Source: a phage. From it: a DNA stretch of 64,000 bases. The notes beneath the pieces were generated by a model. It was not told the DNA's origin. It saw only the letters and a list, made by a program, of their open reading frames with translations, and did not search any database. The translations under genes were made by a program, and so were the position numbers. Each line of letters starts with the position of its first letter. The first letter of the stretch is position 1. Shown piece by piece: positions 28,502-57,839 of the stretch. The stretch lies in the NCBI GenBank assembly GCA_024683775.1, contig GCA_024683775.1_4106.1. One strand, written 5' to 3'.

Positions 28502-28520
28502 AAATCTTAGTAAGAAAATA

Positions 28521-28602
<82 letters not shown>

Positions 28603-28681
28603 GAAGAAACTGCTAAACAGCTTGAAGTACTTTGTAGTGCTGCACCTATGCCGACACTTGGCTTAATCAAGTTGATGCGTA

Positions 28682-28723
<42 letters not shown>

Positions 28724-28774
28724 GCCTCCCCTCAATGCGAAAGAGTATAGAGACTTGTTGGTTATCTTACTTCT

Positions 28775-28852
<78 letters not shown>

Positions 28853-28870
28853 ACAAAATAAAGGTACACT

Positions 28871-41771: not shown

Positions 41772-41981
41772 ATGAATTCAGTAATCTTTTTAATTATTGC
41801 TCTTTCACCACAATCTGGTGTACAAATCACCCCAATGAATTCAATGAATCAATGCATTGCAGTACGTGACAGTACGTATGAACAAGTAAACAGCGTTTCA
41901 CTTAGAACAGTTGGTGAAGAATTAATGTGGTGTTACAATAGTAATACTAAAGAAAAACTAATTGTTGGACAAACAGAATGA
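41772..41981 (+). CDS. hypothetical secreted or membrane protein
   Basis: 69 aa, hydrophobic N-terminus. Confidence 0.5.
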   Translation: MNSVIFLIIALSPQSGVQITPMNSMNQCIAVRDSTYEQVNSVSLRTVGEELMWCYNSNTKEKLIVGQTE

Positions 41982-43507: not shown

Positions 43508-43535
43508 TTGACATAAGATATCAGTACTGTATAAT
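43508..43535 (+). promoter_or_regulatory. class-B promoter TTGACA...cagtactg-TATAAT
   Basis: TTGACA 43508-43513, TATAAT 43530-43535. Confidence 0.5.
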
Positions 43536-43628: not shown

Positions 43629-43937
43629 ATGTTTCAAACTAACACTCAAGGTTTTGTAATCATCGATTTGAACCAAAACAGCGGTTATTGGATGAAACCT
43701 ACTGACGCATGTATGCAGTTTGATTTTTTAGGTTACAGGATTAGTGTAAGTACTGGTGCTTCTGTACTGCGTGGTGGTTGTATCGTTGAACATCTGGTAA
43801 CAGATCCTGAAGGCCGTGAGTATGAAATCGCAGGTTCAGTACAAGATGCCATTATGTTTGTATGTCAGCGTGAAATGAATAGTTCGAATTCAAATGCACT
43901 GACTCATGCTCTTTCTCAAGAAGTGGAGGTTCGTTAA
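43629..43937 (+). CDS. hypothetical protein
   Basis: 102 aa ORF. Confidence 0.55.
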   Translation: MFQTNTQGFVIIDLNQNSGYWMKPTDACMQFDFLGYRISVSTGASVLRGGCIVEHLVTDPEGREYEIAGSVQDAIMFVCQREMNSSNSNALTHALSQEVEVR

Positions 43938-44188
43938 TGAAATATATCGTAGCAGTACTCGTTGCATTTTTACTCACTGCATGTGACGCTTCAACCAAAG
44001 AACGCACAAGTGATTTTATTCTCCCTATTGAATTACAAGAAGCAGGATGTAAGATTTATCGTATGCAAAAGGACGGTGCTGGCGTAACCTTGTATACAGT
44101 TTATTGCCCTAATGCAAATACCAGTACTGGATACAGCAGCGGTAAAACACGAATCAATACTTCAGTGATTAATGGAGTACAACAATGA
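43937..44188 (+). CDS. putative lipoprotein
   Basis: 83 aa; signal peptide with lipobox LTAC. Confidence 0.55.
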   Translation: MKYIVAVLVAFLLTACDASTKERTSDFILPIELQEAGCKIYRMQKDGAGVTLYTVYCPNANTSTGYSSGKTRINTSVINGVQQ

Positions 44189-44553
44189 GCCTTGATACAA
44201 CCCGTGCAACAGATTTATTAACTCGTCTGAATGATGAAGAATATCTTGCTGAAATAAAGTACAAGCTTGAAAAACTGGCACGAAGTGCTGAAGTAATTGA
44301 AGTTAAAGGTCATTTACCAATGGATCAATTCCATACGTTCAAAGAAGATATGGTTTATTATCCAAATGAAATTTGGATTGAGTGGGAACATTGGACTAAC
44401 AAAACTCTACGCATTGAAGGTTATTGTGTAAATTATGAATCTGAACCTGGTGATGTTACAAAAACTCTCTCCATTTGGTGTACAAAAACACATGAACTAG
44501 TTGAGGTGAATTTGAATTATATGAAAGGTTTCCGTTGGGGTGATGTTAAATGA
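44185..44553 (+). CDS. hypothetical protein
   Basis: 122 aa ORF. Confidence 0.55.
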   Translation: MSLDTTRATDLLTRLNDEEYLAEIKYKLEKLARSAEVIEVKGHLPMDQFHTFKEDMVYYPNEIWIEWEHWTNKTLRIEGYCVNYESEPGDVTKTLSIWCTKTHELVEVNLNYMKGFRWGDVK

Positions 44554-44825
44554 TTAAAAAACTATTGACAGTTGTCTTTGTATTCTGTACAATGTTTCTT
44601 ACAGCATGTAATGATGACGGCAGGTTTAGTGCAAAAGACTTAGTTCGTCAGGATTGTACATTCACAGGTAAGTCTTTTATTAACGAGTATGAGGTATGTA
44701 CACAATCAGGCCGTATCTGTGGTGGTTGGGAAAAACGTCAGGAGAGATTGTATGTATATGAATGCCCTGGACATCTCAACAAAGTACTAAGCACACACAA
44801 ACTTGTTTATGATAAGGTTGAATAA
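44550..44825 (+). CDS. putative lipoprotein
   Basis: 91 aa; signal peptide with lipobox LTAC. Confidence 0.55.
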   Translation: MIKKLLTVVFVFCTMFLTACNDDGRFSAKDLVRQDCTFTGKSFINEYEVCTQSGRICGGWEKRQERLYVYECPGHLNKVLSTHKLVYDKVE

Positions 44826-45040
44826 TGACTACCAATGAAATGATGCAGGTTATTTGGGATAAAGGTTGTGATATTAAAATCACTAGTACTGATGTTCGTG
44901 TATTCAAAACTGAATATATGGAGTACTTGGACCTTGATACTTATAATAATATTGTATCAATTGAACACAAAGGTGCAGTACTGGAAACAATTGACGTAGT
45001 ACTGAAGAAAGCTACCGACCTATTAGGAGCGGCAGTGTGA
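44825..45040 (+). CDS. hypothetical protein
   Basis: 71 aa ORF. Confidence 0.5.
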   Translation: MTTNEMMQVIWDKGCDIKITSTDVRVFKTEYMEYLDLDTYNNIVSIEHKGAVLETIDVVLKKATDLLGAAV

Positions 45041-45183
45041 ATAACAAAGAGTGGGAAGAGTACCGTAAGAAGTGCAGGGAGTTTGATAAAGAACTAACTG
45101 GTACAGTGAATGCAGTAATGTGGGTATCTGTAATTATTGCAGTTCTTGCGTTGGGTGCTATTATTATTAATAAATTATTCTAA
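45037..45183 (+). CDS. possible C-tail-anchored mini-protein (48 aa, GTG start)
   Basis: GTGA overlap with upstream stop; my translation VNNKEWEEYRKKCREFDKELTGTVNAVMWVSVIIAVLALGAIIINKLF. Confidence 0.3.
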   Translation: MNNKEWEEYRKKCREFDKELTGTVNAVMWVSVIIAVLALGAIIINKLF

Positions 45184-45193
45184 GGCGAATATC

Positions 45194-45394
45194 ATGTTTA
45201 CTTTATATCTCGCAGTAGTTCTCACCAATGGTGAAATCACTCGTACTATTGGTGAAGGTGTATATAAAACACCAGACCAGTGCTACTCTGCTACTCATTG
45301 GCCTCGCGATAGTGGGGATGAAACTCGCACTGAATTCAAATGCATGAAAGTAAAAGGTGATTTTGTTAACCTTAAGGTTATCGAGGCGAAATAA
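45194..45394 (+). CDS. hypothetical secreted protein
   Basis: ORF frame 45137-45394; hydrophobic N-terminus. Confidence 0.45.
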   Translation: MFTLYLAVVLTNGEITRTIGEGVYKTPDQCYSATHWPRDSGDETRTEFKCMKVKGDFVNLKVIEAK

Positions 45395-45909
45395 TGGATA
45401 TTAATGAGTTGTTGATCTTATTGTTTAATCGTGGAAATGATGTAAGACGTTCTGAATATCAAGACAAAATTCACATTGAAACTGATAAATGTTATGGTAA
45501 AACAACTCATGAGATTTTGAAGCCAAATGGCAAACGATATGCCGATGTATGTTTTCATGAACGAAGTGATGGTAGTGAAATAATCAGTACTGAAATTGTG
45601 TTTTATGATAGATCCTCGGCAGGTTCGTATGAAATAGAACTTATATATTGCCCTGGTTCAGAAACACACAATAAACGTCAGATATTATATGATGTTTATT
45701 CACCTCCAGGTGTAGCTGAATATTTTGTTATTGATTACAGTACTGAAGAAAGTGTGTTTCAACAGAGCTTGATTCATAACTTCCAGTTGAATGATCCAAA
45801 TGTACCAAAGTTGTTCAAACTACTCGATACTATCGATGTTGATTTTGAATTTGTTATGTGCATTAGAACTTCCTTGATCGATGAATTTATGGAACTACTT
45901 AATATATGA
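45394..45909 (+). CDS. FQxS-signature family protein
   Basis: 171 aa; motif EESVFQQSLIHN. Confidence 0.6.
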   Translation: MDINELLILLFNRGNDVRRSEYQDKIHIETDKCYGKTTHEILKPNGKRYADVCFHERSDGSEIISTEIVFYDRSSAGSYEIELIYCPGSETHNKRQILYDVYSPPGVAEYFVIDYSTEESVFQQSLIHNFQLNDPNVPKLFKLLDTIDVDFEFVMCIRTSLIDEFMELLNI

Positions 45910-46127
45910 ATCGTTACTACATTGTGTATGAGCATGTATCTGAGTTTAATAATGTACGTGGTTATAAGAAAGAAGTACAGAAGATTGATGTATTTGTTCG
46001 TGCATTAAGTCCAACACATGCACTATTTAAATTGTTTGATGAAGTAACTAAGTACAACACATCAAAAACACAACGCTATATTGAAACAGTACATAGTGTA
46101 ATACTCACTGAATATGATGGAGAATGA
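45906..46127 (+). CDS. hypothetical protein
   Basis: 73 aa ORF. Confidence 0.5.
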   Translation: MNRYYIVYEHVSEFNNVRGYKKEVQKIDVFVRALSPTHALFKLFDEVTKYNTSKTQRYIETVHSVILTEYDGE

Positions 46128-46130
46128 CAA

Positions 46131-46349
46131 ATGAATTTATATCTAGTTGAAGGGTCAGTACAAGTATCCAAGCAAGACGGAGAAGGGTATCGTTTTTCAC
46201 ATGTAGAATATTTTAAGTACGTAGTAAAGGCCGATGGTCAGTACGACGCAGAAATTCAGGTTGAAGAATCATTCCGTAAGAAGAATGATATTGGTAAATT
46301 TGAATACCAAGACTTACAATTCACTGTATGGCCTAGTATTAATGACTAA
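46131..46349 (+). CDS. hypothetical protein
   Basis: 72 aa ORF. Confidence 0.5.
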   Translation: MNLYLVEGSVQVSKQDGEGYRFSHVEYFKYVVKADGQYDAEIQVEESFRKKNDIGKFEYQDLQFTVWPSIND

Positions 46350-46350
46350 G

Positions 46351-46557
46351 ATGTGGTGGTGTCATGGTGTCTACAATGTCTATGAATATGGTAGATTCAA
46401 AATGAGCAGTACCTATGCCAGACGTGTTAATGCGAAAACCCAAGTTGATGCTGCTTGTGAGATTGTAGAGTGGTATGCAGAGTTCAATGCAATTGAATAT
46501 ATGTACGAAATAGTTACAATAAATGTTGTACAAATTGACACGTCTTTGATACAATAA
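46351..46557 (+). CDS. hypothetical protein
   Basis: ORF frame 46234-46557; internal start chosen after the upstream stop. Confidence 0.4.
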   Translation: MWWCHGVYNVYEYGRFKMSSTYARRVNAKTQVDAACEIVEWYAEFNAIEYMYEIVTINVVQIDTSLIQ

Positions 46558-46590
46558 CTACATCAAAAAACAACTGCAACTGAGGATACT

Positions 46591-47253
46591 ATGTTAGTTA
46601 ATCTTAATTTCATCACTTCTCCTGATTGGGCATTGCGTGGTGTTTCTTTGAACTTTAAAGAAACTAATTTCGACTACATTGGTGATTGTACTTTAGTTAA
46701 TGCTAAATTTGATCCTCATCATCCTTTTTGGGCTGAAATTCATGATCCTAATGTAAACAATAGTACATCTGTTATGACTATTGTACAGACGAAACATACA
46801 GGTATCCTCGCAGGTTACAGACCAGGACATGCGATTGAACACTTCACTGATTATGATGTAGTAGATGAGTATCCAATGATCCATGAAGATGGAAGTTTAT
46901 ACACGTCAGAAGACTTCCGTGCTATCTTTAATAGTACTGATGACATTCTACCAAGTGGTCGTCCACGTCCTGAGTCTTATCTTATGCACTCGTCTTATGG
47001 TGTAGCAGATACGCTTGAACAGATTTTGACGAAGTACAAGAACCTTATTGAAGGTCCAGAAGAAATTGTCATGTGCTATCATCCAGTACTGAAGTCTGAC
47101 CAACCAGAGAGTGGTGGGTGGCGTTGGCATAAGAATGGTGAGTACATCGGTACTAAGCGTAGTAAAGAACGCTTTGAGTACTTGTATGATGAGCCAGATG
47201 TTGAGGTTGTTTTATGTTATAATTTTCTTAAGGTGAAAAAGAAATGTATCTAG
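46591..47253 (+). CDS. hypothetical protein
   Basis: 220 aa; SD gagga. Confidence 0.6.
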   Translation: MLVNLNFITSPDWALRGVSLNFKETNFDYIGDCTLVNAKFDPHHPFWAEIHDPNVNNSTSVMTIVQTKHTGILAGYRPGHAIEHFTDYDVVDEYPMIHEDGSLYTSEDFRAIFNSTDDILPSGRPRPESYLMHSSYGVADTLEQILTKYKNLIEGPEEIVMCYHPVLKSDQPESGGWRWHKNGEYIGTKRSKERFEYLYDEPDVEVVLCYNFLKVKKKCI

Positions 47254-47486
47254 TATTGAGTTTTGTAGTTGCATTATTGTTTATGTTCTACCCTACACTA
47301 GTAGCAGTAGCCACTAAACGAAAGCTGGTGGATATCACTACTGTATTCTTGCTAAACGTGGCACTCGTTCTAGTGTCTATTATCATTCCCGTGAGCTTTA
47401 CGGTTATTGATATGGCATCTGTATTACTATTCGTCTTCAGTTATCTTATGCTTATTGAAGAAAAACCTGTTGACAAACGTTTGTAG
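47244..47486 (+). CDS. hypothetical small membrane protein
   Basis: 80 aa, two TM helices. Confidence 0.5.
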   Translation: MYLVLSFVVALLFMFYPTLVAVATKRKLVDITTVFLLNVALVLVSIIIPVSFTVIDMASVLLFVFSYLMLIEEKPVDKRL

Positions 47487-47497
47487 TACTGTATAAT
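47470..47497 (+). promoter_or_regulatory. class-B promoter TTGACA...gtagtactg-TATAAT
   Basis: TTGACA 47470-47475, TATAAT 47492-47497. Confidence 0.5.
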
Positions 47498-47544
47498 GGT
47501 TCTTGTAGTCTGAAACTTAACACTTAAACTTGAGGATATAAAAC

Positions 47545-47871
47545 ATGTTATCAGTTCTAATTTCAATTCCTGCTCTAATTCTGTTATGGGTTATGGTTTT
47601 CGAATTCTTCATTAAAGACGAAACCGAGCGTGATGAGTTTCGTGAGTTGTTTATGCTAGACTCACCTATTGCACGAATCTTCTTTGTTGTAGTACTTATT
47701 TCAGTACTGTCATGGTTAGTAAGTTTTGTATTACCAATTGGACCATTTGTTTCAATTATGAATTTAGTTGAGAACATTGTCGGTATTGTGTGGTTTATTA
47801 ATGCATTGTTTGCTGGTAAAGTTTCCATTTGGTTTGATATCTTGAAAGATAAACTAACTAGTAAGAAGTAA
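47545..47871 (+). CDS. hypothetical membrane protein
   Basis: 108 aa, three hydrophobic helices. Confidence 0.55.
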   Translation: MLSVLISIPALILLWVMVFEFFIKDETERDEFRELFMLDSPIARIFFVVVLISVLSWLVSFVLPIGPFVSIMNLVENIVGIVWFINALFAGKVSIWFDILKDKLTSKK

Positions 47872-47949
47872 CGTTCAAAAAGTCTCTAATAGTATTAAAT
47901 ACTTCTGTACAAATAATATGTGCAGAAGTATTGCTCGTTAGAGGTTATA

Positions 47950-48315
47950 ATGAAAAAATATATAAGAATGATAATGGTGTTTGTAGTATTCATGCTTTAT
48001 TCAAGGTTCAGTACAGCCGTACCTGCTTACCTTGATTGTATGGGAAACGATGGAACATGGCATGTACTTTCTAATGACCCACAAAATGGAAACAATATTG
48101 TCGTAGATAATGAGGTTTACCGTTTCAGGGCCGAGAGTTTGATTGGGAATAAAAAGGTATCGACATATAAATCAGATGCTGGTATAATAGCAAATGTAAT
48201 ATTGATAGTGGACCCCAAGACAAAGGATGGGGATATTTACATAGTCATTTATCAAGATTCGTCGAACAAACGCGATCAGGATATTGATAAATTGAATATT
48301 CATTGTGAACTTTAA
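47950..48315 (+). CDS. hypothetical secreted protein
   Basis: ORF frame 47920-48315; signal-peptide-like N-terminus. Confidence 0.5.
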   Translation: MKKYIRMIMVFVVFMLYSRFSTAVPAYLDCMGNDGTWHVLSNDPQNGNNIVVDNEVYRFRAESLIGNKKVSTYKSDAGIIANVILIVDPKTKDGDIYIVIYQDSSNKRDQDIDKLNIHCEL

Positions 48316-48325
48316 GGTATAACAA

Positions 48326-48709
48326 ATGATCAACGATGTAATGCTTTATGTATTAATTACTCCGATTCTTATTAACTCAGTAATAACTATTTCAATGGCA
48401 TTATTTGGTATAGTAGCAATTGTTTATGCGGTTAGTACTGGAAAGTATACTTTAATTAGTAAGGTTGATTCATGGTTCGCATCTGATAGTGTACCATATT
48501 CAGCTAGTATGATTACGATTGGTATTCTAATCGTTGCATTTACACTGCACTGTATTGGTTTTATTAATACAAGTATTTTTTCAGTTTTTATTGGTCTATC
48601 ATTATATCCATCACTTTGGTACTTGATTTATGTAATCGATGTTTGGTATAATAACTACAAGCAGTACAAAGTGAAGAAATCCATTTTATCCAAAGGAAAC
48701 AAATCATGA
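48326..48709 (+). CDS. hypothetical multi-pass membrane protein
   Basis: 127 aa ORF. Confidence 0.55.
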   Translation: MINDVMLYVLITPILINSVITISMALFGIVAIVYAVSTGKYTLISKVDSWFASDSVPYSASMITIGILIVAFTLHCIGFINTSIFSVFIGLSLYPSLWYLIYVIDVWYNNYKQYKVKKSILSKGNKS

Positions 48710-49056
48710 AAGTAATTTTGTTTTTTGTTTGTATGATTATATGTGGTATGTCTTATGCAGAACCATTACCTGGACTAGTCTGTACTGAAGGTGATATTAA
48801 ACACATTTACCAAGGTGATAGCGATGACCATACTATCGTTTATATCGATGGTGAAGTGTATAATTTTGTTAAAGAACATACTGTAGGTGACATTAGTTTT
48901 ACGCAGTACTCGAATGATACTGATCCCAATATGCTTGCATTTCTTCAAGTTGATGTATATGAAGAAAGTAATGGCGAACAGTATGTTAAACTTGTGATGA
49001 TGCGTAAGGCAGCAAAACAGGCAACATTCGGTGGCTTGTGTAAATATGAGGACTAA
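48706..49056 (+). CDS. hypothetical secreted protein
   Basis: 116 aa; signal-like N-terminus; shares a D-x-V-Y-x-F motif with 47950 and 53301. Confidence 0.5.
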   Translation: MKVILFFVCMIICGMSYAEPLPGLVCTEGDIKHIYQGDSDDHTIVYIDGEVYNFVKEHTVGDISFTQYSNDTDPNMLAFLQVDVYEESNGEQYVKLVMMRKAAKQATFGGLCKYED

Positions 49057-49060
49057 ACAT

Positions 49061-49252
49061 ATGTTGATTTATCAATGTGATAACATTCGTGTTATGCAGC
49101 ATCCCTACTTACAAATCTTTGATGTGCAGCAGTATATGGAAGGTGATGATCCAAGAACCTATGGTCGTAAGTATGATTACTTCACTGTAAAGCAGTGTCG
49201 TGACATCAAAGAAGTACGACAATTAGTTCAAGAACTTCAAAATAAAGGTTGA
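49061..49252 (+). CDS. hypothetical protein
   Basis: ORF frame 49031-49252; SD gagga. Confidence 0.45.
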   Translation: MLIYQCDNIRVMQHPYLQIFDVQQYMEGDDPRTYGRKYDYFTVKQCRDIKEVRQLVQELQNKG

Positions 49253-49278
49253 CTTCGGTCAACCTTTTTTGTTATAAT
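49246..49278 (+). promoter_or_regulatory. terminator-promoter cassette copy 2
   Basis: hairpin aggTTGAC-ttcg-GTCAacct 49246-49265, T-run, TATAAT 49273-49278; -35 TTGACT inside the 5' arm. Confidence 0.6.
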
Positions 49279-49307
49279 TATTTCATCAACTACTGGGGAT
49301 TTTAATT

Positions 49308-49748
49308 ATGTACGTATATCGTTTTGAACTTAAATTCAGTTATATTGAACCTAACTTAGATCCAGCAAAAACAGTAGGGCCGTTCGCACGGTACTCTTCA
49401 CGATACAGTACTAAAAATGGATTTGACCGTTTGTGCATGACCACGCCTTCGCAATTCCAACCAGAACCAACTGAAGATGGAATCTATTCAATCAAACGTG
49501 GCTGGGCATTTGGCTGTCAGAGTTTGAATGATTTGTTTAAGTTCTTTACTATGGACTTGGGTAAATTACATCGTGCAGGGTTTGCTGTATCAGTATATGA
49601 AGTTCCTGATAATCATGTTGACATTGGTCGTAGTCAGGTTCAGTACTATTGTGGTAGTGCCAATCTGGTTCGTATCATGTCAGTGAGAGAAGCAAAGGAT
49701 GAGTACCGCCAAAGTAAAAGAGTAATACATGAGGCTGTATATGGATAA
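49308..49748 (+). CDS. hypothetical protein
   Basis: 146 aa ORF. Confidence 0.55.
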   Translation: MYVYRFELKFSYIEPNLDPAKTVGPFARYSSRYSTKNGFDRLCMTTPSQFQPEPTEDGIYSIKRGWAFGCQSLNDLFKFFTMDLGKLHRAGFAVSVYEVPDNHVDIGRSQVQYYCGSANLVRIMSVREAKDEYRQSKRVIHEAVYG

Positions 49749-50085
49749 GACTCAAATAGAATTAAAAAAATTTGTATCGTTTTATCTACCCAATGACCCA
49801 CGTTGTACACAATATGATGTTGCATATTACAATGCATTGACTACGCAGTTAATGAAGAAATTCAAACAATGTTTGACTGTATTCAATGATGATGGTAGAC
49901 GTAGATATAGAATCATTCCAATGAATGATGAAAACGATAACTACTTTGACTTTGATGTTGTTTTTAGAGCATACAGTGATGATAGAATAAAATTAAATTA
50001 TGAGCAAATAATGCTTGACCTGAGTGTTATCTGTGTTATAATTACTCACATAGCCGAACTTGATGGTTTAAAAGAATGGTATTAA
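49741..50085 (+). CDS. hypothetical protein
   Basis: ORF frame 49729-50085. Confidence 0.5.
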   Translation: MDKTQIELKKFVSFYLPNDPRCTQYDVAYYNALTTQLMKKFKQCLTVFNDDGRRRYRIIPMNDENDNYFDFDVVFRAYSDDRIKLNYEQIMLDLSVICVIITHIAELDGLKEWY

Positions 50086-50099
50086 CTTAGAGGATAATC

Positions 50100-50366
50100 A
50101 TGAAGCTTAAATTACAATACAATGGTTTTACTTTGCGTAACGACACTGAGTTTGTCAATCGTTCACCAGGTGCCGAGTTGTTTTTGCGAGAGATGAACAT
50201 TCCTTTCGTCATCACTACTGTTGGTGACCGTGAAGTGCTACAATACGCAGAGCATCCAGTTATTGATGTTCCGTGGTATTCTGAGCATATGTATATGGAT
50301 ATGGCCCGTCGCTACGACTGTAAGTTCGTAGTTGAAGGTGATAAAATTACAGTCCAATTCAAATAA
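50100..50366 (+). CDS. hypothetical protein
   Basis: 88 aa; SD agagga. Confidence 0.5.
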   Translation: MKLKLQYNGFTLRNDTEFVNRSPGAELFLREMNIPFVITTVGDREVLQYAEHPVIDVPWYSEHMYMDMARRYDCKFVVEGDKITVQFK

Positions 50367-50377
50367 GGTAACTTAAA

Positions 50378-50671
50378 ATGATCAGTACTTCAGTAAATGC
50401 AAGCATCGTGGCAGACGTAGAAATGGTTAAAGAATGTACAGACGAAACCCTTCGCAACATGTACATCAATGATTTGATTTCAGAGTACGGAAGTCGTGGT
50501 GTTCATGAGTTTGTTCGCCTAAGCGGTGAATTGATGAAGAATCGCATTCGTATGAAGCTTAATGTGCATCCAAAAGCATGGGCGTTTACAATGAAGTACG
50601 CTGAAGATATTGTTGAATTGCGTCGCAATGATGTGTATAATCGTTTACACAATGGTACATTAAAGGACTAA
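50378..50671 (+). CDS. hypothetical protein
   Basis: 97 aa ORF. Confidence 0.5.
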   Translation: MISTSVNASIVADVEMVKECTDETLRNMYINDLISEYGSRGVHEFVRLSGELMKNRIRMKLNVHPKAWAFTMKYAEDIVELRRNDVYNRLHNGTLKD

Positions 50672-50676
50672 ATTAT

Positions 50677-50705
50677 AGGAATCCGTAAAAGGATTCCTGT
50701 TCTTG
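50677..50705 (+). terminator. rho-independent terminator
   Basis: aggaatcc-gtaaaa-ggattcct hairpin followed by a T-rich tract. Confidence 0.5.
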
Positions 50706-50721
50706 TTTATAAGGTAATAAA

Positions 50722-50946
50722 ATGAAATATCTAGTACTAGTACTGCTATTCTTGAGTACTGTTGTATGTGCTAAACCAAAGTATCATGTAGTGTGTATCA
50801 ACGAGATGGAAGGGTATACTGAAACATATAAGAACCATATTGTTGAAGTTGCAGCCCAAGGTTCCTATGGGACCATCATCTTCCTTAAGAACAATGTGAT
50901 TGTTCAGTACAAAAAAGATTCAAATTGTAAAGTGACTAAAAATTGA
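50722..50946 (+). CDS. hypothetical small secreted protein
   Basis: 74 aa, signal-like N-terminus. Confidence 0.5.
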   Translation: MKYLVLVLLFLSTVVCAKPKYHVVCINEMEGYTETYKNHIVEVAAQGSYGTIIFLKNNVIVQYKKDSNCKVTKN

Positions 50947-51016
50947 TCTAGATCAATTTTTCAGATATTCTCTGTAAATAATAGCAGTACAGAACATTAT
51001 TTTACGGAGGTGTAAT

Positions 51017-51253
51017 ATGGAAACTATAATCATCATATGTGCGTTGTTTGCATTTTTGGTAATGTGGTCACCAACATTCATTGCATATAAAATGAAAAAT
51101 AAAAATGCAGAAGCAATTATGTACGTAAACTTATGTTGCATACTAACTTATGGAATACTTTTATTCTTTACTGAATTTACATTAATCCCAGTAGTAGTTT
51201 GTTCATCAATGTTTATTTGGTTGTTTCTGCTTTATGAATCTATTAAAAAATAA
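51017..51253 (+). CDS. hypothetical small membrane protein
   Basis: 78 aa ORF. Confidence 0.5.
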   Translation: METIIIICALFAFLVMWSPTFIAYKMKNKNAEAIMYVNLCCILTYGILLFFTEFTLIPVVVCSSMFIWLFLLYESIKK

Positions 51254-51307
51254 AAGATATAGGGTTGGTAATATGCCATCCCTTTTACTTTATGTGGGGT
51301 TTAATTA

Positions 51308-51880
51308 ATGAATAGAAAAGGTAAGTTTAAAGTATCAAAGAAGAACAAAAGTTCTAGATTTAGACCTATAACTTTAACTTTTAAGGCTAAAGAAGAATTA
51401 ACTGCACTTAGTAAAAAGATAATTTCATCTAAGATTAAAGTATCATACGTAAATTCGGTAAAATTTCAGAAGGTTAAACCACAAGACAAACTCATTTCAC
51501 TTATATTTAAACGTAATGATTTTGAGATATTAGTAGATGATTATAGAGCCTATAATGCTGGATTCATTCATGTCACTTGTAATACCGAACTAACTGAGTT
51601 GGAACATTTGACATGTATCATAAGTGTAGATAACGGTGTGGTGAAGTACAATTTTTTACATTTTACCAATATCAATAATGGAATGGGTGTACAATCCAGA
51701 CCTATAGTACCTACATGTGATGTAACTAATTTAGCAAAGCTCAATGAAGAAGAATATTTTCAAGAAAGCATTGTAACTGAGCATTTAGATGCTATAATAG
51801 CAACTTACAAAGAATGCATATGGGTTTTGAATGCGATAAAGCCCAAATTGTGTTTAATGAATGTCGTTCGTGATTTATAA
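51308..51880 (+). CDS. FQxS-signature family protein
   Basis: 190 aa; motif EEEYFQESIVTE. Confidence 0.6.
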   Translation: MNRKGKFKVSKKNKSSRFRPITLTFKAKEELTALSKKIISSKIKVSYVNSVKFQKVKPQDKLISLIFKRNDFEILVDDYRAYNAGFIHVTCNTELTELEHLTCIISVDNGVVKYNFLHFTNINNGMGVQSRPIVPTCDVTNLAKLNEEEYFQESIVTEHLDAIIATYKECIWVLNAIKPKLCLMNVVRDL

Positions 51881-51893
51881 CTGGAGATGAAGT

Positions 51894-52337
51894 ATGGGTT
51901 GGATTAACGTTAATAGCATTGAGCTAAATGAGCAAGACATATTTGCCTTTGTTAATTTGGTAGAGAACATTGCTATTAAAGGTCGTCTGTTTAGTTCATC
52001 GGACGGTAAAAAATGGATCTCTCTTATGAACGACAATGGCGAGATTTATGACGTTATGCAACTACCTCATTGGGCTTATAAGAATACATCTGATGATGTG
52101 ATGGCTGCTGTTATGCGTGAGTTTGAGAAGCTGCCAGGTGGTGATATTAAGAACATCGTATTCAATGCAGAACGCATGAACTACACACCAGAGCAGCTTC
52201 AACAGTTGGCAATTGCTGCCTATCAAGCTGCCATTAAGAAACCTGAATGTGTGATATTAAAGTACACACCGAACTTGAAGTTAACACTAGAAGATATGGA
52301 TTCCTTTATCTTCAGTTCAGAACTTAAACAGTACTGA
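51894..52337 (+). CDS. hypothetical protein
   Basis: 147 aa ORF. Confidence 0.55.
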   Translation: MGWINVNSIELNEQDIFAFVNLVENIAIKGRLFSSSDGKKWISLMNDNGEIYDVMQLPHWAYKNTSDDVMAAVMREFEKLPGGDIKNIVFNAERMNYTPEQLQQLAIAAYQAAIKKPECVILKYTPNLKLTLEDMDSFIFSSELKQY

Positions 52338-52448
52338 TTTGACTTTGGAACAACCATTTCATATGTGATATAATCTTAAGTGTCTGTTGAAATAAACAGC
52401 ACATGAAGTATAAATATTAAAGTAATTTATCTCTTTAAGGAGTATGAA

Positions 52449-52832
52449 ATGGTTGATAAATGGAATAAGAAAGATCCATCGCATGATGTGGATATTTCTG
52501 GAATTGATAATGCACATAAGCATAAGTATCTTGATTCACTAGGTCTACTAAAGCCTGACCAAAGTCTTGCACATGATCGTCCTTCACGTGAAAAAGCTTT
52601 CAGTCTAGAATCACTAGGCCATGAATTGAATCGTGTATTTGAAGATCATCCAATTTATGTACGTGATATCATTGAGAAACTTAAAGTGACTCCTAAAGAG
52701 CACTTCAAGGCAACAGTACACGCAGCATTCCGTGCACTACATGAAGCACTAAAGAAAACTCATAACCTTCGCAAGATTCATGATGACATCGTGAACTCTA
52801 TTGAAGGCGAAAAACATAAGTTTAAAAAATAA
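52449..52832 (+). CDS. hypothetical basic protein; shares a YLDSLGLL-type motif with 54195-55688
   Basis: 127 aa; SD aaggag. Confidence 0.55.
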   Translation: MVDKWNKKDPSHDVDISGIDNAHKHKYLDSLGLLKPDQSLAHDRPSREKAFSLESLGHELNRVFEDHPIYVRDIIEKLKVTPKEHFKATVHAAFRALHEALKKTHNLRKIHDDIVNSIEGEKHKFKK

Positions 52833-52839
52833 TTAAAAG

Positions 52840-52872
52840 GGGTTGACTTCAGTCAGCCCTTTGTCGTATAAT
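52840..52872 (+). promoter_or_regulatory. terminator-promoter cassette copy 3
   Basis: hairpin gggTTGAC-ttca-GTCAgccc, TATAAT 52867-52872. Confidence 0.6.
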
Positions 52873-52919
52873 ATTTTCATCAAGTGATACAAAATACAAA
52901 CAACGTGAGGTATTAAATT

Positions 52920-53030
52920 ATGCAAGGTACTAAATTCATCATCGCTGCCCTAATCGCTGCTGTTGTAGTGGGTACAGTATGTTATTCAATTGACACCTAT
53001 ATCAATACACCTAGTGTTGAACAAACCAAA
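52920..53030 (+). CDS. possible membrane mini-protein (36 aa)
   Basis: SD tgagg; my translation MQGTKFIIAALIAAVVVGTVCYSIDTYINTPSVEQTK. Confidence 0.35.
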
Positions 53031-53041
53031 TAAGGGATATC

Positions 53042-53299
53042 ATGGCTGAAACATTATCACTATATGCGTTAGTACTGTTATTTGTCGGATTTCTTCCCGC
53101 ACTCATTACAGCCATTCGTGTTGTTAAACATGAAGCTGCATTGATTGTATGTAGTATTGGGTCGAACATTCTATTGTATTTCTTTTTGACAAATACTATT
53201 GTACTGTTTGCTTTCTTTATCATGATTCTGTGGGTACTTGTAATTCTCGGATTCTTCATTTGGTCATTGGTTGATCCTAAGAAAAAACAGGAGAAGTGA
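53042..53299 (+). CDS. hypothetical membrane protein
   Basis: 85 aa ORF. Confidence 0.5.
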   Translation: MAETLSLYALVLLFVGFLPALITAIRVVKHEAALIVCSIGSNILLYFFLTNTIVLFAFFIMILWVLVILGFFIWSLVDPKKKQEK

Positions 53300-53300
53300 A

Positions 53301-53597
53301 ATGAAATTAATTATTGTAATGATGATGTGTTTGGCTTTCCCAGTACTGGCTACTCCTAATCTGGACTGCACACTGTTGCGTTCAGATGGTGACACACTTG
53401 AAATCAACACATATGAACTCTTTGGTCCAAGTGTAGTGGAGAATGAAACCACCTACAATTTCAAAGCTATTGACTTTGAAGGTAATGTTCCAGTACTAAC
53501 TACAATGACTATTGACAAAACTACTTTACTCGGACGAATCACCACACAACGCGGAGAAAGTAAAACATTCACAGCGAAAGCTGACTGTAACTACTAA
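53301..53597 (+). CDS. hypothetical secreted protein
   Basis: ORF frame 53271-53597; SD aggagaag; signal-like N-terminus. Confidence 0.5.
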   Translation: MKLIIVMMMCLAFPVLATPNLDCTLLRSDGDTLEINTYELFGPSVVENETTYNFKAIDFEGNVPVLTTMTIDKTTLLGRITTQRGESKTFTAKADCNY

Positions 53598-53619
53598 TGG
53601 TATAGTACAGTGAAAATAG

Positions 53620-53649
53620 GGTTGACTTCGGTCAACCTTTATATATAAT
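53620..53649 (+). promoter_or_regulatory. terminator-promoter cassette copy 4
   Basis: hairpin ggTTGAC-ttcg-GTCAacc, TATAAT 53644-53649. Confidence 0.6.
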
Positions 53650-53662
53650 GGAAGAAATAAAC

Positions 53663-54190
53663 ATGGAACGTTGGAAATTAATTCCTGATTATGACTATTC
53701 AATTTCTGATCATGGAAGAGTAAGAAACGAACAAACTGGATATATAAGTTGTGGATTTAAAAATAAAGATGGGTATGTGAAGGTCGATTTGTATCGCAAT
53801 TCTGTGAAAAATAGAAAGGCGATTCATCGACTAGTAGCTGAAGCATTTTTACCACCACCCACACAGAAACAGTTACAGTGGGCAAGTAGAACAAAGAAAA
53901 AAGTTGTTCACATAAACCATAAAGATTGTAATAGAAGTAACAATCACTATTTGAATTTGGAATGGAACACAGCATCTGAAAACGTACTATATTCTTATTC
54001 ACATGGTAACGCAACAACTAATCGTGGTGCTGCTGTGTTGACATGGGAAATTGTAAGAGAAATAAGAAAAGATTATAATGATAATTATAATGATGTGATA
54101 GAATATGCACGAGAAAATTGTAATAAATACCGTGTATGTAAAAAAACAATACGTCGTATTTTATACAATCAAACATGGATAGAGGATTAA
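53663..54190 (+). CDS. HNH homing endonuclease (NUMOD4-like plus HNH_3)
   Basis: ORF frame 53648-54190, start moved past the promoter -10; WKLIPDYDYSISDHGRVRN...; INHKDCNRSNNHYLNLEW. Confidence 0.8.
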   Translation: MERWKLIPDYDYSISDHGRVRNEQTGYISCGFKNKDGYVKVDLYRNSVKNRKAIHRLVAEAFLPPPTQKQLQWASRTKKKVVHINHKDCNRSNNHYLNLEWNTASENVLYSYSHGNATTNRGAAVLTWEIVREIRKDYNDNYNDVIEYARENCNKYRVCKKTIRRILYNQTWIED

Positions 54191-54194
54191 AAAT

Positions 54195-55688
54195 ATGCCA
54201 CAAGATAATGGGGATATGAAACATCGTAATGGTGGACTAGTACAACACTCGGATAAATGGGCCGACCGAAATCGTCGCAAAAATAGTTATCAAGCAGGAC
54301 AAGGTTCACGTGGTTCACGTAATCAAGGGACAGGTTTAGCTGGTAAGGCAAACGCAGAAGCAGGTGAAGTTAAGAGTACTGAGAACATGACTGAGCTAGA
54401 AAAGCTACGTTATGTTAACTCATTAGGTCTTCTTAACGCAACACAGAAACAACGCCTTGCTGATATGGAACGTGCTGAGAAAGAACAAGCAGTTCCTAAA
54501 GAAGAACCAAAACCAGAAGCTCCTAAAGCAGCTAACCCTGTTAAAGAGTTATCTGATAACTTAGGTAAGATCTTTGCTAACAAACCACAGTTGATTCAGG
54601 GTATTGTCAAAGCACTACAGGCAGTTCCTAAAGAAGAACTCAAAGGTAAAGCACAAGCTGTACTTGATGCAATGAAAGGTAATAAGAGCACTGAACCCAC
54701 TGAAGTATTCAGTACTATCATGCGTGCACTTGAAGGTACACACAAAGAAGATTCGAAAGAACCTGAACAGGGTGAAGCAAGTCTTGATGGTATTCTTAAA
54801 ACTTTTGATAGTATTGGTAAAGCAGACCGTGCTAATGCCCAGCAAGTCAAGAATGTACTGGCTAAACTTGAAAACCGTTTAGAAGGTAAAGACGATAAGG
54901 TTAAGCTCGTATCAGATGCAGTTAACAGTGCACTTAAATCTTATGTACAAGGTGAGAAAAGTCGCTTCGTAACAGCTATGGATGCTGCATTCAACACTAT
55001 GAAAAAGTATGAAGCAGAACATGGTGAGAAAGTGACACCTGATGGATATCTACTACGTAAAGATGAAGAAGGTGCAGTTGAACAGAAAGATGTTGAGCCT
55101 GAGCAAGAAGATCTACCTGATACCGTTGATATGGATGGATACATTCATCGTCCTGAGATGGAAGAGTTTGGGTCAGATAAAGAAGGTTTTGAACATGCAA
55201 TGGCAGTATATAAAGCATTAGTTAAAAATCCAGATTATGCTAACCGTTTTGTTGACGAGTTTGATAGTGCATGGAATAACTACAAAGACAAAGGTTATGA
55301 CTTCCCTGCTGAAGCTGCATTCTTTGAACTTGGTAAACTATTAGCTAAACATGGAATTGACGTTGGTTCATCTGATTCTGACGGTATGGAAGAAGAACAT
55401 CTTGAAATGACTGATAAATCAATTCATGAACTTCAAAAGTTAATGATGTGGATATCCGAGATTGGTAAAAAAGCAGGTGCTGATAGTAAAAGTATCAACA
55501 AAAATATTAGTTGGATTAAAGATAATGTTGGTAACAATGCTCGTAAACTTCAAAAGGCTTGGGCTGATTTAGTAAATGGTGCAGATGATGTTGACATTGA
55601 ATCACCAGAAGCATATGAGTATGCACTAACTACACTTGATAACTCATTCAAAGAGTACGACCGTGGTGTTGGAAAGGATAAAAAATAA
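54195..55688 (+). CDS. hypothetical large charged protein (K/E-rich)
   Basis: 497 aa; N-terminal LRYVNSLGLLNATQ resembles 52449-52832. Confidence 0.6.
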   Translation: MPQDNGDMKHRNGGLVQHSDKWADRNRRKNSYQAGQGSRGSRNQGTGLAGKANAEAGEVKSTENMTELEKLRYVNSLGLLNATQKQRLADMERAEKEQAVPKEEPKPEAPKAANPVKELSDNLGKIFANKPQLIQGIVKALQAVPKEELKGKAQAVLDAMKGNKSTEPTEVFSTIMRALEGTHKEDSKEPEQGEASLDGILKTFDSIGKADRANAQQVKNVLAKLENRLEGKDDKVKLVSDAVNSALKSYVQGEKSRFVTAMDAAFNTMKKYEAEHGEKVTPDGYLLRKDEEGAVEQKDVEPEQEDLPDTVDMDGYIHRPEMEEFGSDKEGFEHAMAVYKALVKNPDYANRFVDEFDSAWNNYKDKGYDFPAEAAFFELGKLLAKHGIDVGSSDSDGMEEEHLEMTDKSIHELQKLMMWISEIGKKAGADSKSINKNISWIKDNVGNNARKLQKAWADLVNGADDVDIESPEAYEYALTTLDNSFKEYDRGVGKDKK

Positions 55689-55697
55689 ACATTTAAA

Positions 55698-55730
55698 AGG
55701 TTGACTTCGGTCAACCTTTTTTTGTAAATA
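55698..55730 (+). promoter_or_regulatory. terminator-promoter cassette copy 5 (weak -10)
   Basis: hairpin aggTTGAC-ttcg-GTCAacct plus T7 run. Confidence 0.55.
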
Positions 55731-55759
55731 TTGTAGAGGGTTTTATAAGAGGTAATGCA

Positions 55760-56011
55760 ATGTTTAAATATGTTTTATTTTCACTTGTATTGTTTACTGA
55801 TATAGTTTATAGTACTGAATACCAGTGCTCTATTGCTAGACAGGAGTTTAGAAACGGTGAGTTCTATACCAAGTCTTACACTAGAGGATTGGTACATGAC
55901 AATAATAAAACTATAGGGTTCAATGCATTTGATAACAAAGATCGATATACGTCTGGAATACTATCTGAACGTAAGTCGGATGTAATAGGTATCGAGCATG
56001 AATTCCGGTGA
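55760..56011 (+). CDS. hypothetical secreted protein
   Basis: 83 aa, signal-like N-terminus. Confidence 0.5.
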   Translation: MFKYVLFSLVLFTDIVYSTEYQCSIARQEFRNGEFYTKSYTRGLVHDNNKTIGFNAFDNKDRYTSGILSERKSDVIGIEHEFR

Positions 56012-56372
56012 CACAGTTGCAATGTGTAATGATATTGAGAGTACTAAGAAAGTATATACTAATGGTGAAAATACCTTTAGATTCCACAATCTTACTACCA
56101 ATGAAAGTTTATACTTCTACAACTGTAAAGAGTTCATTAAACCTGTGGATAACTCATGTGATATGCCGGAGCCAAAAGCTGCTGTATGTGAGGAACCACA
56201 ATCCAAAGCTGACAAAGATTCAAAAGATAAGAAAGACAAAGCTGACAAATTGGATAAAAAAGAAAACAAAAAGAAAGCTAAAGATGATAAAGATAAAAAG
56301 TCCCCTAAGCCAAATCCATTTGAAAAGCCAAAGAATGAAAAGCCAAAACCAGACATGACATGTAAAATATAA
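55998..56372 (+). CDS. hypothetical protein with K/D-rich low-complexity C-terminus
   Basis: 124 aa; overlaps 55760-56011 by 14 nt in a different frame; alternative ORF 56008-56358 covers the same DNA. Confidence 0.4.
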   Translation: MNSGDTVAMCNDIESTKKVYTNGENTFRFHNLTTNESLYFYNCKEFIKPVDNSCDMPEPKAAVCEEPQSKADKDSKDKKDKADKLDKKENKKKAKDDKDKKSPKPNPFEKPKNEKPKPDMTCKI

Positions 56373-56379
56373 AAGAAAA

Positions 56380-56412
56380 GGGTTGACTTCGGTCGGCCCT
56401 TTTTGCTATAAT
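56380..56412 (+). promoter_or_regulatory. terminator-promoter cassette copy 6
   Basis: hairpin gggTTGAC-ttcg-GTCggccc, TTTTT, GCTATAAT (TATAAT 56407-56412). Confidence 0.6.
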
Positions 56413-56438
56413 CATTTCATCAACTACTGGAGGCAAAC

Positions 56439-56852
56439 ATGTTAAAAGTTATTTTCCGTTCTATCAGTTCATTACTTCTTATGATTAGTTCAGTTTCTTA
56501 TGCAAATGAAGTATCTGACTTGTTTGAGAAGAATTACCCAACTGCACAAGAGATGGGTGTTTTAAAATGCAAGCTAACTTCGTACAACATCATCGGCAGT
56601 AAACTTGTACTGGAACATGAACGTAGTACACCAATCCCTCTAGTAGAAGAAGGCAGTACCTTTAGCTTCAAGTACGGGGTGAACGTAACATCTGGTGTAA
56701 TGAACAATGTTGATGCAGAGACTGGTTCAACATGGAGTACTAGCGGTAAAGATGTGTTTCATCGTATGCGTGAAAATGGTAAACTGAAGTACGTATATGA
56801 AAGTTCATTCATGAAACGTGTATTCATTATAAAAAATTGTGTACCAGCATAA
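56439..56852 (+). CDS. hypothetical secreted protein
   Basis: 137 aa, signal-like N-terminus. Confidence 0.55.
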   Translation: MLKVIFRSISSLLLMISSVSYANEVSDLFEKNYPTAQEMGVLKCKLTSYNIIGSKLVLEHERSTPIPLVEEGSTFSFKYGVNVTSGVMNNVDAETGSTWSTSGKDVFHRMRENGKLKYVYESSFMKRVFIIKNCVPA

Positions 56853-57148: not shown

Positions 57149-57487
57149 ATGGAACATCATTTTGAATTAATTAATAAGGTATCATTTTATGTAGTATCGT
57201 TAATTTGGGTGTATTACATGTTTTGTTACATTATTGCATTCTTCCGATACACAACCTTGTATCAACGCATATACTACGATGCACCCATTTCATTTATGAT
57301 GTTCTGTGCATGTACGTGGGGGATAATTGAAGCACTGGTATGTGGATATAGTACTGACGAATTAAATCTCGTATCGGGGTTGACATTACTAACAATTGCC
57401 ATTATGATAGCTACTGTTCCGATATTTTTGCTCTTTAAACTGCTTCATCGTATTGATGAGTGGCGTAATAAAATCCCTGAAAAGTAA
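57149..57487 (+). CDS. small membrane protein, paralog family M (C-terminal R-x-K-I-P-E)
   Basis: 112 aa; three hydrophobic helices; tail ...RNKIPEK. Confidence 0.55.
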   Translation: MEHHFELINKVSFYVVSLIWVYYMFCYIIAFFRYTTLYQRIYYDAPISFMMFCACTWGIIEALVCGYSTDELNLVSGLTLLTIAIMIATVPIFLLFKLLHRIDEWRNKIPEK

Positions 57488-57490
57488 GGA

Positions 57491-57838
57491 TTGATAATGA
57501 TTTTTTACACTAATGCGTTTGCTTATGCCGTTGCATCAATCTACATTGTGTACTTCTTATTTGGTGGAGTACTGTACTTCTTTAAGTACAAAACATTGTT
57601 TAACCGAATGTATCCAAATCATCCAATTGTAGTAGTACTTTTGATTATTTCTGTTGCTCACATCATTGTAGAAACAATAATGGGTATCAGTGCAGTACAT
57701 TACAGTCTAGGTACTATTGTAATTATTACTATGATCATCGCATACATTTTAGTAATGGGTTTTGGTTTATTTGGAAATGTAGCAATGAAATTGTATAATC
57801 GAATCAAAACATTACGTGATAATCTACCGGAGCGTTGA
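57491..57838 (+). CDS. small membrane protein, paralog family M
   Basis: 115 aa; tail ...RDNLPER. Confidence 0.55.
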   Translation: MIMIFYTNAFAYAVASIYIVYFLFGGVLYFFKYKTLFNRMYPNHPIVVVLLIISVAHIIVETIMGISAVHYSLGTIVIITMIIAYILVMGFGLFGNVAMKLYNRIKTLRDNLPER

Positions 57839-57839
57839 G

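Follow-up and report, generated by a model that had tools for sequence, protein, structure and literature searches.

In phage T4, a large virulent myovirus, superinfecting phage are excluded by two proteins acting together: Imm, a small early inner-membrane protein, and Spackle (gp61.3), an early, Sec-exported periplasmic protein of 75 amino acids (aa) in its mature form, which has one disulfide and inhibits the gp5 tail lysozyme (PMC7677548). The bacterial protein PliC has a Sec signal, about 90 aa, two cysteines, an acidic isoelectric point (pI) and a disulfide-stabilised eight-stranded barrel (PMC2267010). The superinfection-exclusion lipoproteins Cor (T1/phi80) and Llp (T5) target the FhuA plug at the outer membrane, and their genes adjoin the receptor-binding gene (PMC9586334). 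Here, we examined a 64,000-nucleotide stretch of phage DNA (assembly GCA_024683775.1, contig GCA_024683775.1_4106.1; the window), in which a first-pass annotation had pointed out a cluster of small, apparently exported proteins between positions 43,937 and 56,852. The cluster is best read as an early set of predicted envelope proteins, and a role in superinfection exclusion or cell-wall protection is our tentative preference. Early envelope-acting phage proteins are already known as a kind; the families described here are uncharacterised and, by sequence comparison, unrelated to Spackle, Imm, Cor and Llp.

By sequence identity, the source phage is an Asteriusvirus jumbo coliphage, a myovirus of the RaK2-like group; over the 14.5 kb around the cluster, identity is 99.6% with Escherichia phage EC.P1 and about 86% with PBECO4 and 121Q. 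Nearly all genes of the window lie on the + strand, including the exported and membrane-protein genes, promoters and hairpins named below, and the GC content is 31–38%. All nine open reading frames (ORFs) of the proposed cluster are present, starting at 43937, 44550, 45194, 47950, 48706, 50722, 53301, 55760 and 56439; we name their proteins after these starts. A Shine-Dalgarno motif was found at −9 to −13 for nine of ten starts checked (these nine and a further ORF at 41772), the exception being 44550, whose start overlaps the stop codon of the upstream gene 44185–44553. The ratio of nonsynonymous to synonymous substitution rates (dN/dS, omega) of the exported genes against 121Q ranges from 0.04 to 0.33, which shows that these ORFs are real genes under purifying selection.

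Export was called from a heuristic N-terminus scan of all 145 called genes together with conservation in orthologues. A Sec signal for signal peptidase I was defined by a basic n-region, an h-region of 7–15 residues, small residues at −3/−1 and no further transmembrane (TM) segment, and a lipoprotein signal for signal peptidase II by [LVI][ASTVI][GAS]C after the n/h region. Complete Sec signals are found in six proteins, with cleavage sites at STA↓VP in p47950, SYA↓EP in p48706, VCA↓KP in p50722, VLA↓TP in p53301, VYS↓TE in p55760 and SYA↓NE in p56439. The lipobox L-T-A-C that had been assigned to two ORFs is indeed there, in p43937 (43937..44188, 83 aa; Cys16, mature N-terminus Cys-Asp-Ala, two further invariant cysteines in CKIY ... 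VYCP) and in p44550 (44550..44825, 91 aa; Cys20, mature N-terminus Cys-Asn-Asp-Asp, four further conserved cysteines; phrog_31263), and its cysteine is invariant in all orthologues and across five genera. The ninth protein, p45194 (45194..45394, 66 aa, two conserved cysteines), has a 9–10 residue h-region and lacks a basic n-region and an AXA site; its export signal is weak and uncertain. Eight of the nine ORFs therefore have credible export signals, two lipoboxes and six Sec-type peptides, and the original count of nine holds except for p45194.

These signals are locally concentrated and conserved. Export-type N-termini occur in 9 of 33 genes in 43.9–56.9 kb and in 1–4 of 106 genes elsewhere in the window (Fisher p = 8e-6 to 3e-4). 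In the orthologues from 121Q, JNE01 and Klebsiella RaK2, the n/h/c organisation, the cleavage motif, the lipobox cysteine and the mature-domain cysteines are kept while the signal-peptide sequence drifts. Eight of the nine mature domains have exactly 2 or 4 non-lipid cysteines, all conserved, a count shared by 19 of 72 cytoplasmic proteins of 50–150 aa (p = 5e-4). The envelope targeting proposed for the cluster is thus supported by sequence, orthologue conservation and cysteine parity. A model in which these proteins are Sec-exported and act at the inner membrane and in the periplasm has good support, their actual localisation and disulfide formation being inferred. No Pfam or NCBIfam family reached threshold for any of ten exported candidates, and sub-threshold matches to TrbK, an Acinetobacter lipoprotein and the Myticin prepro domain were rejected as driven by the signal peptide.

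The three exported proteins with a common mature domain are p47950 (47950..48315, 121 aa, signal peptide 1–23, mature Cys 7 and 96), p48706 (48706..49056, 116 aa, signal peptide 1–18, mature Cys 8 and 94, net charge −11) and, most divergent, p53301 (53301..53597, 98 aa, mature Cys 6 and 79), which is absent from 121Q and has 48% identity in JNE01. Compared by their mature domains alone, p47950 and p48706 match with a blastp E of 7.5e-6 (shuffle z = 7.9), and p47950 and p53301 with an E of 0.006 (z = 4.6); by these comparisons the three are paralogues. The segment D-x-V-Y-x-F, said to be shared by several proteins of the cluster, does not occur in that literal form; a related D-x-E-V-Y-x-F is present in p47950 (DNEVYRF) and p48706 (DGEVYNF), is degenerate in p53301 (ENETTYNF) and, within the cluster, is confined to these three. 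When all ORFs of the window and of three related loci were searched iteratively with a profile, ten family members were recovered, 2–3 per genome (hmmsearch E = 1e-22 to 1e-48), each with a signal peptide, one cysteine 6–8 residues into the mature chain and one 2–5 residues from the C-terminus. The mature domains have 81–98 aa, two cysteines and a pI of 4.4–4.7, and the p48706 subfamily is strongly acidic, with a net charge of −8 to −15.

On the sequences searched, the family is confined to this phage lineage: a set of 5.8 billion proteins contains eight clusters of it, and 1.84 billion representatives include nine small members. A word-indexed homology search with p48706 or p43937 returned close relatives only, and exhaustive searching by HMMER with the mature-barrel profile revealed no remote family. 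Five giant proteins (P0017, P0019, P0023, P0026 and P0028, 695–6093 aa) with E values down to 2e-40 were rejected as homologues; these values are sums over 27 repeats with a period of about 98 aa, each contributing 0–11 bits on a Y-x-F-x-A-x-D-x-x-G-N hairpin, so the matches are an accumulation artefact of many low scores. The hairpin motif itself curiously resembles the phage segment D-x-E-V-Y-x-F-x-A-E-x-x-x-G-N. Two other exported proteins, p50722 (50722..50946, 74 aa, basic, mature Cys 8 and 52; 51% identity in 121Q, absent from JNE01) and p56439 (56439..56852, 137 aa, mature Cys 22 and 112; 40–56% in 121Q and JNE01), were tried as family members and went undetected (E = 0.25 and 4.7, respectively; 0.027 for the 121Q orthologue of p50722), having only the terminal cysteine pattern in common with the family.

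An AlphaFold2 model of p48706 (mean predicted local distance difference test score, pLDDT, 79.9; about 85–95 over the mature domain) consists of a signal-peptide helix followed by eight beta-strands forming an all-beta mature domain. The N-terminal helix is of low confidence and detached from the compact domain, and the two cysteines fall in the first (E24–28) and last (E108–114) strands. We therefore assign a predicted eight-stranded beta-barrel to the p47950/p48706/p53301 family with good confidence, and refer to its members as barrels.

This predicted architecture is like that of MliC and PliC, periplasmic lysozyme inhibitors of bacteria that are directed against animal c-type lysozymes; the target of the phage barrels, if any, would instead be a T4-type lysozyme. 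The modelled strand number agrees, and all 10 barrels have exactly two cysteines placed near the N- and C-termini as in the E. coli MliC sequence. Sequence evidence for kinship is lacking: the barrels have no Pfam match to MliC/PliC (COG3895, PF09864) at E ≤ 1, hhalign gives 0.07%, the family profile finds no MliC/PliC among Protein Data Bank sequences and PliC is not among the structures ranked by Foldseek. None of the 10 phage barrels has the inhibitory-loop motifs S-x-S-G-A-x-Y and [YW]-x-x-x-[ST]-K-G; in the structures 2f09, 3f6z and 4mir, S-x-S-G-A-x-Y and W-[ST]-K-G motifs are present. The MliC/PliC comparison set is one in which we take Brucella PhiA and Neisseria ACP to be included.

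Every barrel gene is preceded by a gene for a small polytopic membrane protein. The first, 47545..47871 (108 aa, about 3 TM segments, phrog_31401), precedes 47950; the second, 48326..48709 (127 aa, 4–5 TM, phrog_31707), precedes 48706, whose start its stop overlaps by 4 nucleotides (nt); and the third, 53042..53299 (85 aa, 3 TM), directly precedes 53301. Together with a further small polytopic membrane protein at 47244..47486 (80 aa, 2 TM), which opens the block and has orthologues in the same position in 121Q, JNE01 and RaK2, the order TM 47244, TM 47545, barrel 47950, TM 48326, barrel 48706 is identical in these three phages. This five-gene block (47244–49056) is syntenic across two phage genera, with identities down to 24–46%. 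The TM partners 47545, 48326 and 53042 are not paralogues, as they would be had the module been duplicated as a unit.

A perfect sigma70-type promoter (47470..47497, 12/12, 48 nt upstream of 47545) and a UUCG-loop hairpin terminator (49244..49267) enclose the four genes from 47545 onward and a small ORF at 49061; the terminator ends the 47545–49252 unit, and its 5' arm is the −35 of a promoter at 49249–49278. The third pair, 53042/53301, is bracketed by two hairpin copies of the same type (52841..52858 at the left edge and 53620..53637 at the right). Homologues of 53042 were found in none of 121Q, JNE01 and RaK2, the pair as a whole is absent from 121Q, and JNE01 has the barrel only, all of which makes it a moron-like variable cassette. 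Directly after it, at 53648–54190, lies an HNH homing endonuclease gene that is missing at this site in 121Q, JNE01 and RaK2. The hairpin GGTTGAC-TTCG-GTCA[AG]CC (18 nt) recurs at 41120, 49247, 52841, 53620, 55699, 61005 and 61588, seven copies against none expected, every one intergenic and on the + strand. It has a UUCG tetraloop on a terminator-like stem, and its 5' arm gives a TTGAC −35 with TATAAT 16–18 nt downstream, so it would act as a combined terminator and promoter.

The first-pass annotation had also placed the cluster in an early region, a view supported by near-consensus sigma70 promoters found on the + strand only. Sigma70-like sites scoring at least 11/12 number 12 on the + strand and 0 on the − strand in 41–58.5 kb, with about 0.7 expected per 17.5 kb, and 39 and 0 in the whole window, far above the shuffled expectation; the total of sigma70-like sites in the region is not above chance. 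Most of these high-scoring promoters lie 27–170 nt upstream of a gene start. Besides the one at 47470, they include a perfect site (43508..43535, 12/12) upstream of the 43629–45394 gene run that holds both lipoproteins, one at 41679–41707 (11/12, 65 nt upstream of 41772) and one with an extended −10 TG at 56383..56412 (11/12, 27 nt upstream of 56439). In the related phage CBB, RpoD-type promoters cluster over short ORFs around the phage sigma-factor gene and were read as an early region (PMC5259590); a sigma-factor gene sits just upstream of the region here, as in 121Q and RaK2. The evidence supports assigning the cluster to a part of the phage's region for early transcription by host RNA polymerase (sigma70). 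The entire 64 kb resembles such a region.

Taken together, host sigma70 transcription would send a set of small proteins out of the cytoplasm through Sec soon after infection: two signal peptidase II lipoproteins, at least one of which (p43937) is predicted to remain on the inner membrane, and six soluble periplasmic proteins with disulfides, interleaved with small polytopic inner-membrane proteins. The conserved core would be the operon bounded by promoter 47470 and terminator 49244, together with TM gene 47244 upstream of it; here two acidic eight-stranded barrels, each presumably with a first-to-last-strand disulfide, alternate with membrane proteins. The set would most likely guard or remodel the infected cell's envelope, the membrane proteins blocking genome entry at the inner membrane and the periplasmic barrels binding and neutralising peptidoglycan hydrolases, for instance the gp5-like tail lysozyme that related phages bring with them. 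Both superinfection exclusion and periplasmic anti-defence are plausible, with indirect support from the PliC/MliC-like fold of the barrel family and from the gp5-like tail lysozymes of this lineage (PMC5259590). We lean, with somewhat less than even confidence, towards an early envelope set for superinfection exclusion or cell-wall protection that follows the logic of T4 Imm and Spackle with unrelated proteins.

Four points favour this reading. T4 provides the precedent, in Imm and a periplasmic inhibitor of the gp5 lysozyme. The baseplate of RaK2-like phages includes a gp5-like protein with a lysozyme domain of the T4 type, and their endolysin is TM-anchored (PMC5259590). The predicted barrels have the architecture of bacterial peptidoglycan-hydrolase inhibitors. 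Finally, the p48706 subfamily is acidic, and the surface of gp5 lysozyme that Spackle targets is basic (PMC7677548). The likeness to Imm and Spackle consists in small cysteine-paired periplasmic proteins and small inner-membrane proteins (both predicted) behind early promoters, in a lineage with gp5-like tail lysozymes (PMC5259590), and it extends to working logic only. The p48706 model is all-beta, whereas Spackle forms a bundle of alpha-helices (PMC7677548); there is no sequence homology, and none of the nine proteins has a PHROG or Pfam match to Spackle. No operon is described for the T4 imm and spackle genes, in contrast to the alternating, translationally coupled TM and barrel genes of this phage. 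On the Imm side, the small 3-TM protein p51017 (51017..51253), labelled 'immunity to superinfection' in OQ718158, falls below the gathering score of the Imm family PF14373 (15.7 bits against a cutoff of 27.9), the match covering 22 residues of TM helix and the model being a 42-residue TM; p53042 does not match PF14373.

Some of our results weigh against this interpretation. All PHROG families matched by cluster proteins are of 'unknown function', the AlphaFold2 alignment for p48706 is shallow (10 sequences), and the rule by which an Asp at +2 retains lipoproteins depends on the +3 residue, with p44550 having Asn at +2. The region also contains two virion-protein genes, so not everything here is classically 'early'. 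Moreover, omega of the exported genes is not significantly above that of neighbours (p = 0.09), and the barrels have high or saturated dS values; given these values and the omega range above, positive selection is unsupported. In favour of the interpretation, exported and TM proteins are less conserved than their neighbours: median identity to 121Q is 71% for exported, 74% for TM and 88% for cytoplasmic neighbouring proteins (Mann-Whitney p = 0.006), and several exported and TM genes are present in some genomes only. This pattern looks like old allelic divergence and exchange. Within the genus, both lipoproteins and p45194 are well conserved, unlike the other exported proteins.

A more specific version of the exclusion and cell-wall protection reading, which we regard as speculative and on balance improbable, is that the TM/barrel module (47244–49056 plus 53042/53301) is a non-homologous all-beta counterpart of Imm and Spackle, whose barrels of PliC/MliC-type fold would bind and inhibit either the T4-type lysozyme in the tails of superinfecting jumbo phages or the membrane-anchored endolysin of the phage itself, with the membrane partners holding or assisting them. 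If true, these would be the first phage-borne peptidoglycan-hydrolase inhibitors of PliC/MliC fold and a second, independently evolved solution to lysozyme-based exclusion. The literature searched contains no description of phage MliC/PliC-fold proteins or of a TM/barrel module.

An endogenous target leads to the first of the alternatives, in which the cluster times lysis: barrels and membrane proteins would restrain the phage's own signal-anchor endolysin or holin, or would sense superinfection and delay lysis, as the T4 antiholin RI does. A periplasmic brake would be useful to a RaK2-like phage, whose endolysin carries a TM domain at its N-terminus and proved toxic on cloning (PMC5259590), and both the predicted hydrolase-inhibitor-like fold of the barrels and the many small TM proteins of holin or antiholin size agree with such a role. 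Against it, the cluster and its surroundings contain no gene for an endolysin, holin or spanin, the cluster proteins have no homology to RI or other antiholins, and consensus sigma70 early promoters precede the genes while lysis genes are usually late. We consider lysis timing unlikely, though it deserves to be weighed.

Much the same likelihood, a clear minority one, attaches to anti-defence or host takeover, by which the exported proteins would be inhibitors of envelope factors of the host (nucleases or proteases of the periplasm, membrane abortive-infection effectors, envelope-stress sensors) and not of rival phages. The set's export fits this as it fits exclusion, but no known anti-defence family was matched, PADLOC and anti-defence libraries being uninformative or unsearched for these proteins, and positive selection was not detectable; the conservation of the p43937 family from Vibrio to E. 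coli hosts argues for a conserved target.

Receptor masking, which the first-pass annotation had raised as one function for the cluster, fares much worse and seems to us very improbable. Here p43937, p44550 and p55760 (55760..56011, 83 aa, Sec-type, one conserved cysteine) would bind the periplasmic face of an outer-membrane receptor and block adsorption in the manner of Cor or Llp. The idea has public labels behind it: OQ718158 calls the p43937 homologue a 'Cor' superinfection exclusion protein, and PP777464 calls the homologues of p43937, p44550 and p55760 'lytic conversion lipoprotein'. The paper for PP777464 leaves the labelled genes undiscussed; the fEgEco12 and phAPEC6 papers are silent on the cluster genes. 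In size the proteins resemble Cor and Llp, they contain cysteines, and p43937 matches phrog_1119 (Cor) at E = 9e-4, over residues 1–49 only.

Against a 20-member Cor alignment, hhalign gave p43937 a probability of 92.6% over residues 1–19 only, that is, signal peptide and lipobox, from which we conclude that the labels derive from signal-peptide similarity. Mature-domain hhalign returned 0.5% for Cor and 0.8% for T5 Llp, and mature-domain Smith-Waterman comparisons with Cor and Llp gave z ≤ 0.7 for p43937, p44550 and p55760. The control of Cor against Llp itself reached only 2.4%, indicating low sensitivity and leaving room for a remote structural relationship, so the +2 residue, cysteine pattern and gene linkage were weighed as well. 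The +2 residue is Ser in Cor (Cys-Ser-Ser) and Llp (Cys-Ser-Thr) and Asp in p43937, where it is invariant among the Asteriusvirus members; Asp at +2 is a signal for avoidance of LolCDE and retention on the inner membrane (PMC5727369). The p43937 cysteines are arranged as a hairpin staple, unlike the N-to-C clamp seen in Cor and Llp, and the cluster lipoproteins show no mature-domain similarity to Cor (SSMPERTC ... LRAGYPFSF ... HxC) or Llp. In the T1 map, the cor gene adjoins the receptor-binding gene, whereas the p43937-family genes of this window, of FelixO1 and UPEC06 and of the Erwinia and Vibrio phages neighbour small hypothetical or replication genes, with no adjacent receptor-binding gene in five genera; p55760 has no lipobox and is not a lipoprotein. 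Together with the sub-threshold Imm match of p51017, this leaves the public labels 'Cor', 'lytic conversion lipoprotein' and 'immunity' unsupported.

The same observations bear on what p43937 is. It is a clear member of phrog_902 (E = 5e-13 over residues 1–73), a family of small lipoproteins of virulent myoviruses with unknown function, found in FelixO1 (ORF213), rV5-like phages, Eneladusvirus and ~114-kb Vibrio phages, a membership that names the protein without explaining its function. A tblastn search with p43937 found homologues in 572 phage records, all unannotated, with identities of 32–56% along the entire mature domain; the phages include FelixO1-like and rV5-like ones, Erwinia and Yersinia jumbo phages and ~114-kb Vibrio phages. 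Shared features are the lipobox, Asp, Asn or Glu at +2, and Y-x-LP-x-E[LM] ... C-[KQN]-[IV]-Y ... V-x-x-CP ... GK. In a five-genus alignment, which keeps the lipobox and two invariant cysteines in a conserved core, the +2 residue is D, D, D, D, N or E, with Asp in the Asteriusvirus, rV5-like and Erwinia proteins, Asn in FelixO1 and Glu in Vibrio. We therefore predict that p43937 stays on the inner membrane; the sorting signal of p44550 is ambiguous, its JNE01 orthologue having Cys-Asp-Glu. An AlphaFold2 model of p43937 (9 close homologues) had a pLDDT of 53, too poor for a fold search. A spanin or lysis-cassette reading of the lipoprotein run was rejected, there being no i-spanin, endolysin or holin nearby, no TM segment in 43629 or 44185 and early promoters upstream; Asp at +2 of p43937 also argues against the outer-membrane sorting that it would need.

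Chance, in the sense of hydrophobic N-termini arising in small AT-rich ORFs (such genomes being rich in Phe, Ile, Leu and Lys codons, with p45194 and 41772 as weak cases) or of uncleaved anchors without a common theme, is hardly credible and largely refuted by the local enrichment (p ≤ 3e-4), the cysteine parity, dN/dS well below 1, cleavage motifs and cysteines conserved over drifting signal peptides, the detached N-terminal helix of the p48706 model and synteny across genera.

RaK2/121Q-group jumbo phages are in development for therapy, and about 80% of their genes are unannotated. Our results suggest that a substantial part of the early programme is aimed at the envelope and not the cytoplasm, and that mislabels arising from signal-peptide or TM-helix similarity are being spread by annotation pipelines. 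The TM/barrel block and the widespread phrog_902 lipoprotein are small, easily cloned candidates for exclusion or cell-wall protection, and exclusion functions bear on how phages can be combined in cocktails. Should the barrels inhibit peptidoglycan hydrolases, a bacterial anti-lysozyme fold would be linked to phage–phage competition.

Several neighbouring features complete the picture of the locus. A possible tenth exported protein, of uncertain export, is encoded just outside the cluster at 41772..41981 (69 aa). It and p45194 have short, uncharged hydrophobic N-termini (MNSVIFLIIAL... and MFTLYLAVVL..., respectively) and two conserved cysteines each; either may be exported by an atypical signal or have a release-type anchor. 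In RaK2, p45194 is better conserved than any other gene of the set (64% identity), and it has a sub-threshold match to DUF1482 (18.6 bits, cutoff 25). The end of p55760 is overlapped by p55998 (55998–56372), which has a long Lys/Asp/Pro-rich low-complexity tail (KADKDSKDKKDKADKLDKKENKKKAKDDKDKK...) and on whose start codon annotators differ. The two genes annotated and PHROG-classified as virion structural proteins within the early-promoter region, 52449–52832 and 54195–55688, are homologues of 121Q gp199 and gp201, share an N-terminal domain and may encode injected or internal proteins.

Downstream of the cluster, 3-TM proteins of about 112 aa are encoded in two tandem arrays (57149–58184 and 62486–63820). 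The members of the first (57149, 57497 and 57840) are clearly paralogous, with phrog_19285 matched by 57149 and 57497, and its profile did not detect the second array. Upstream, 21649–28854 holds seven tRNA genes, three for Met, two for Ser (one with the unusual anticodon ACT) and one each for Asn and Thr, and the few minus-strand 'ORFs' there overlap tRNAs or intergenic DNA. At 21846–22332 lies a tandem trio of 54-aa paralogues, each starting MTHEEWM, the first two of which are almost identical.

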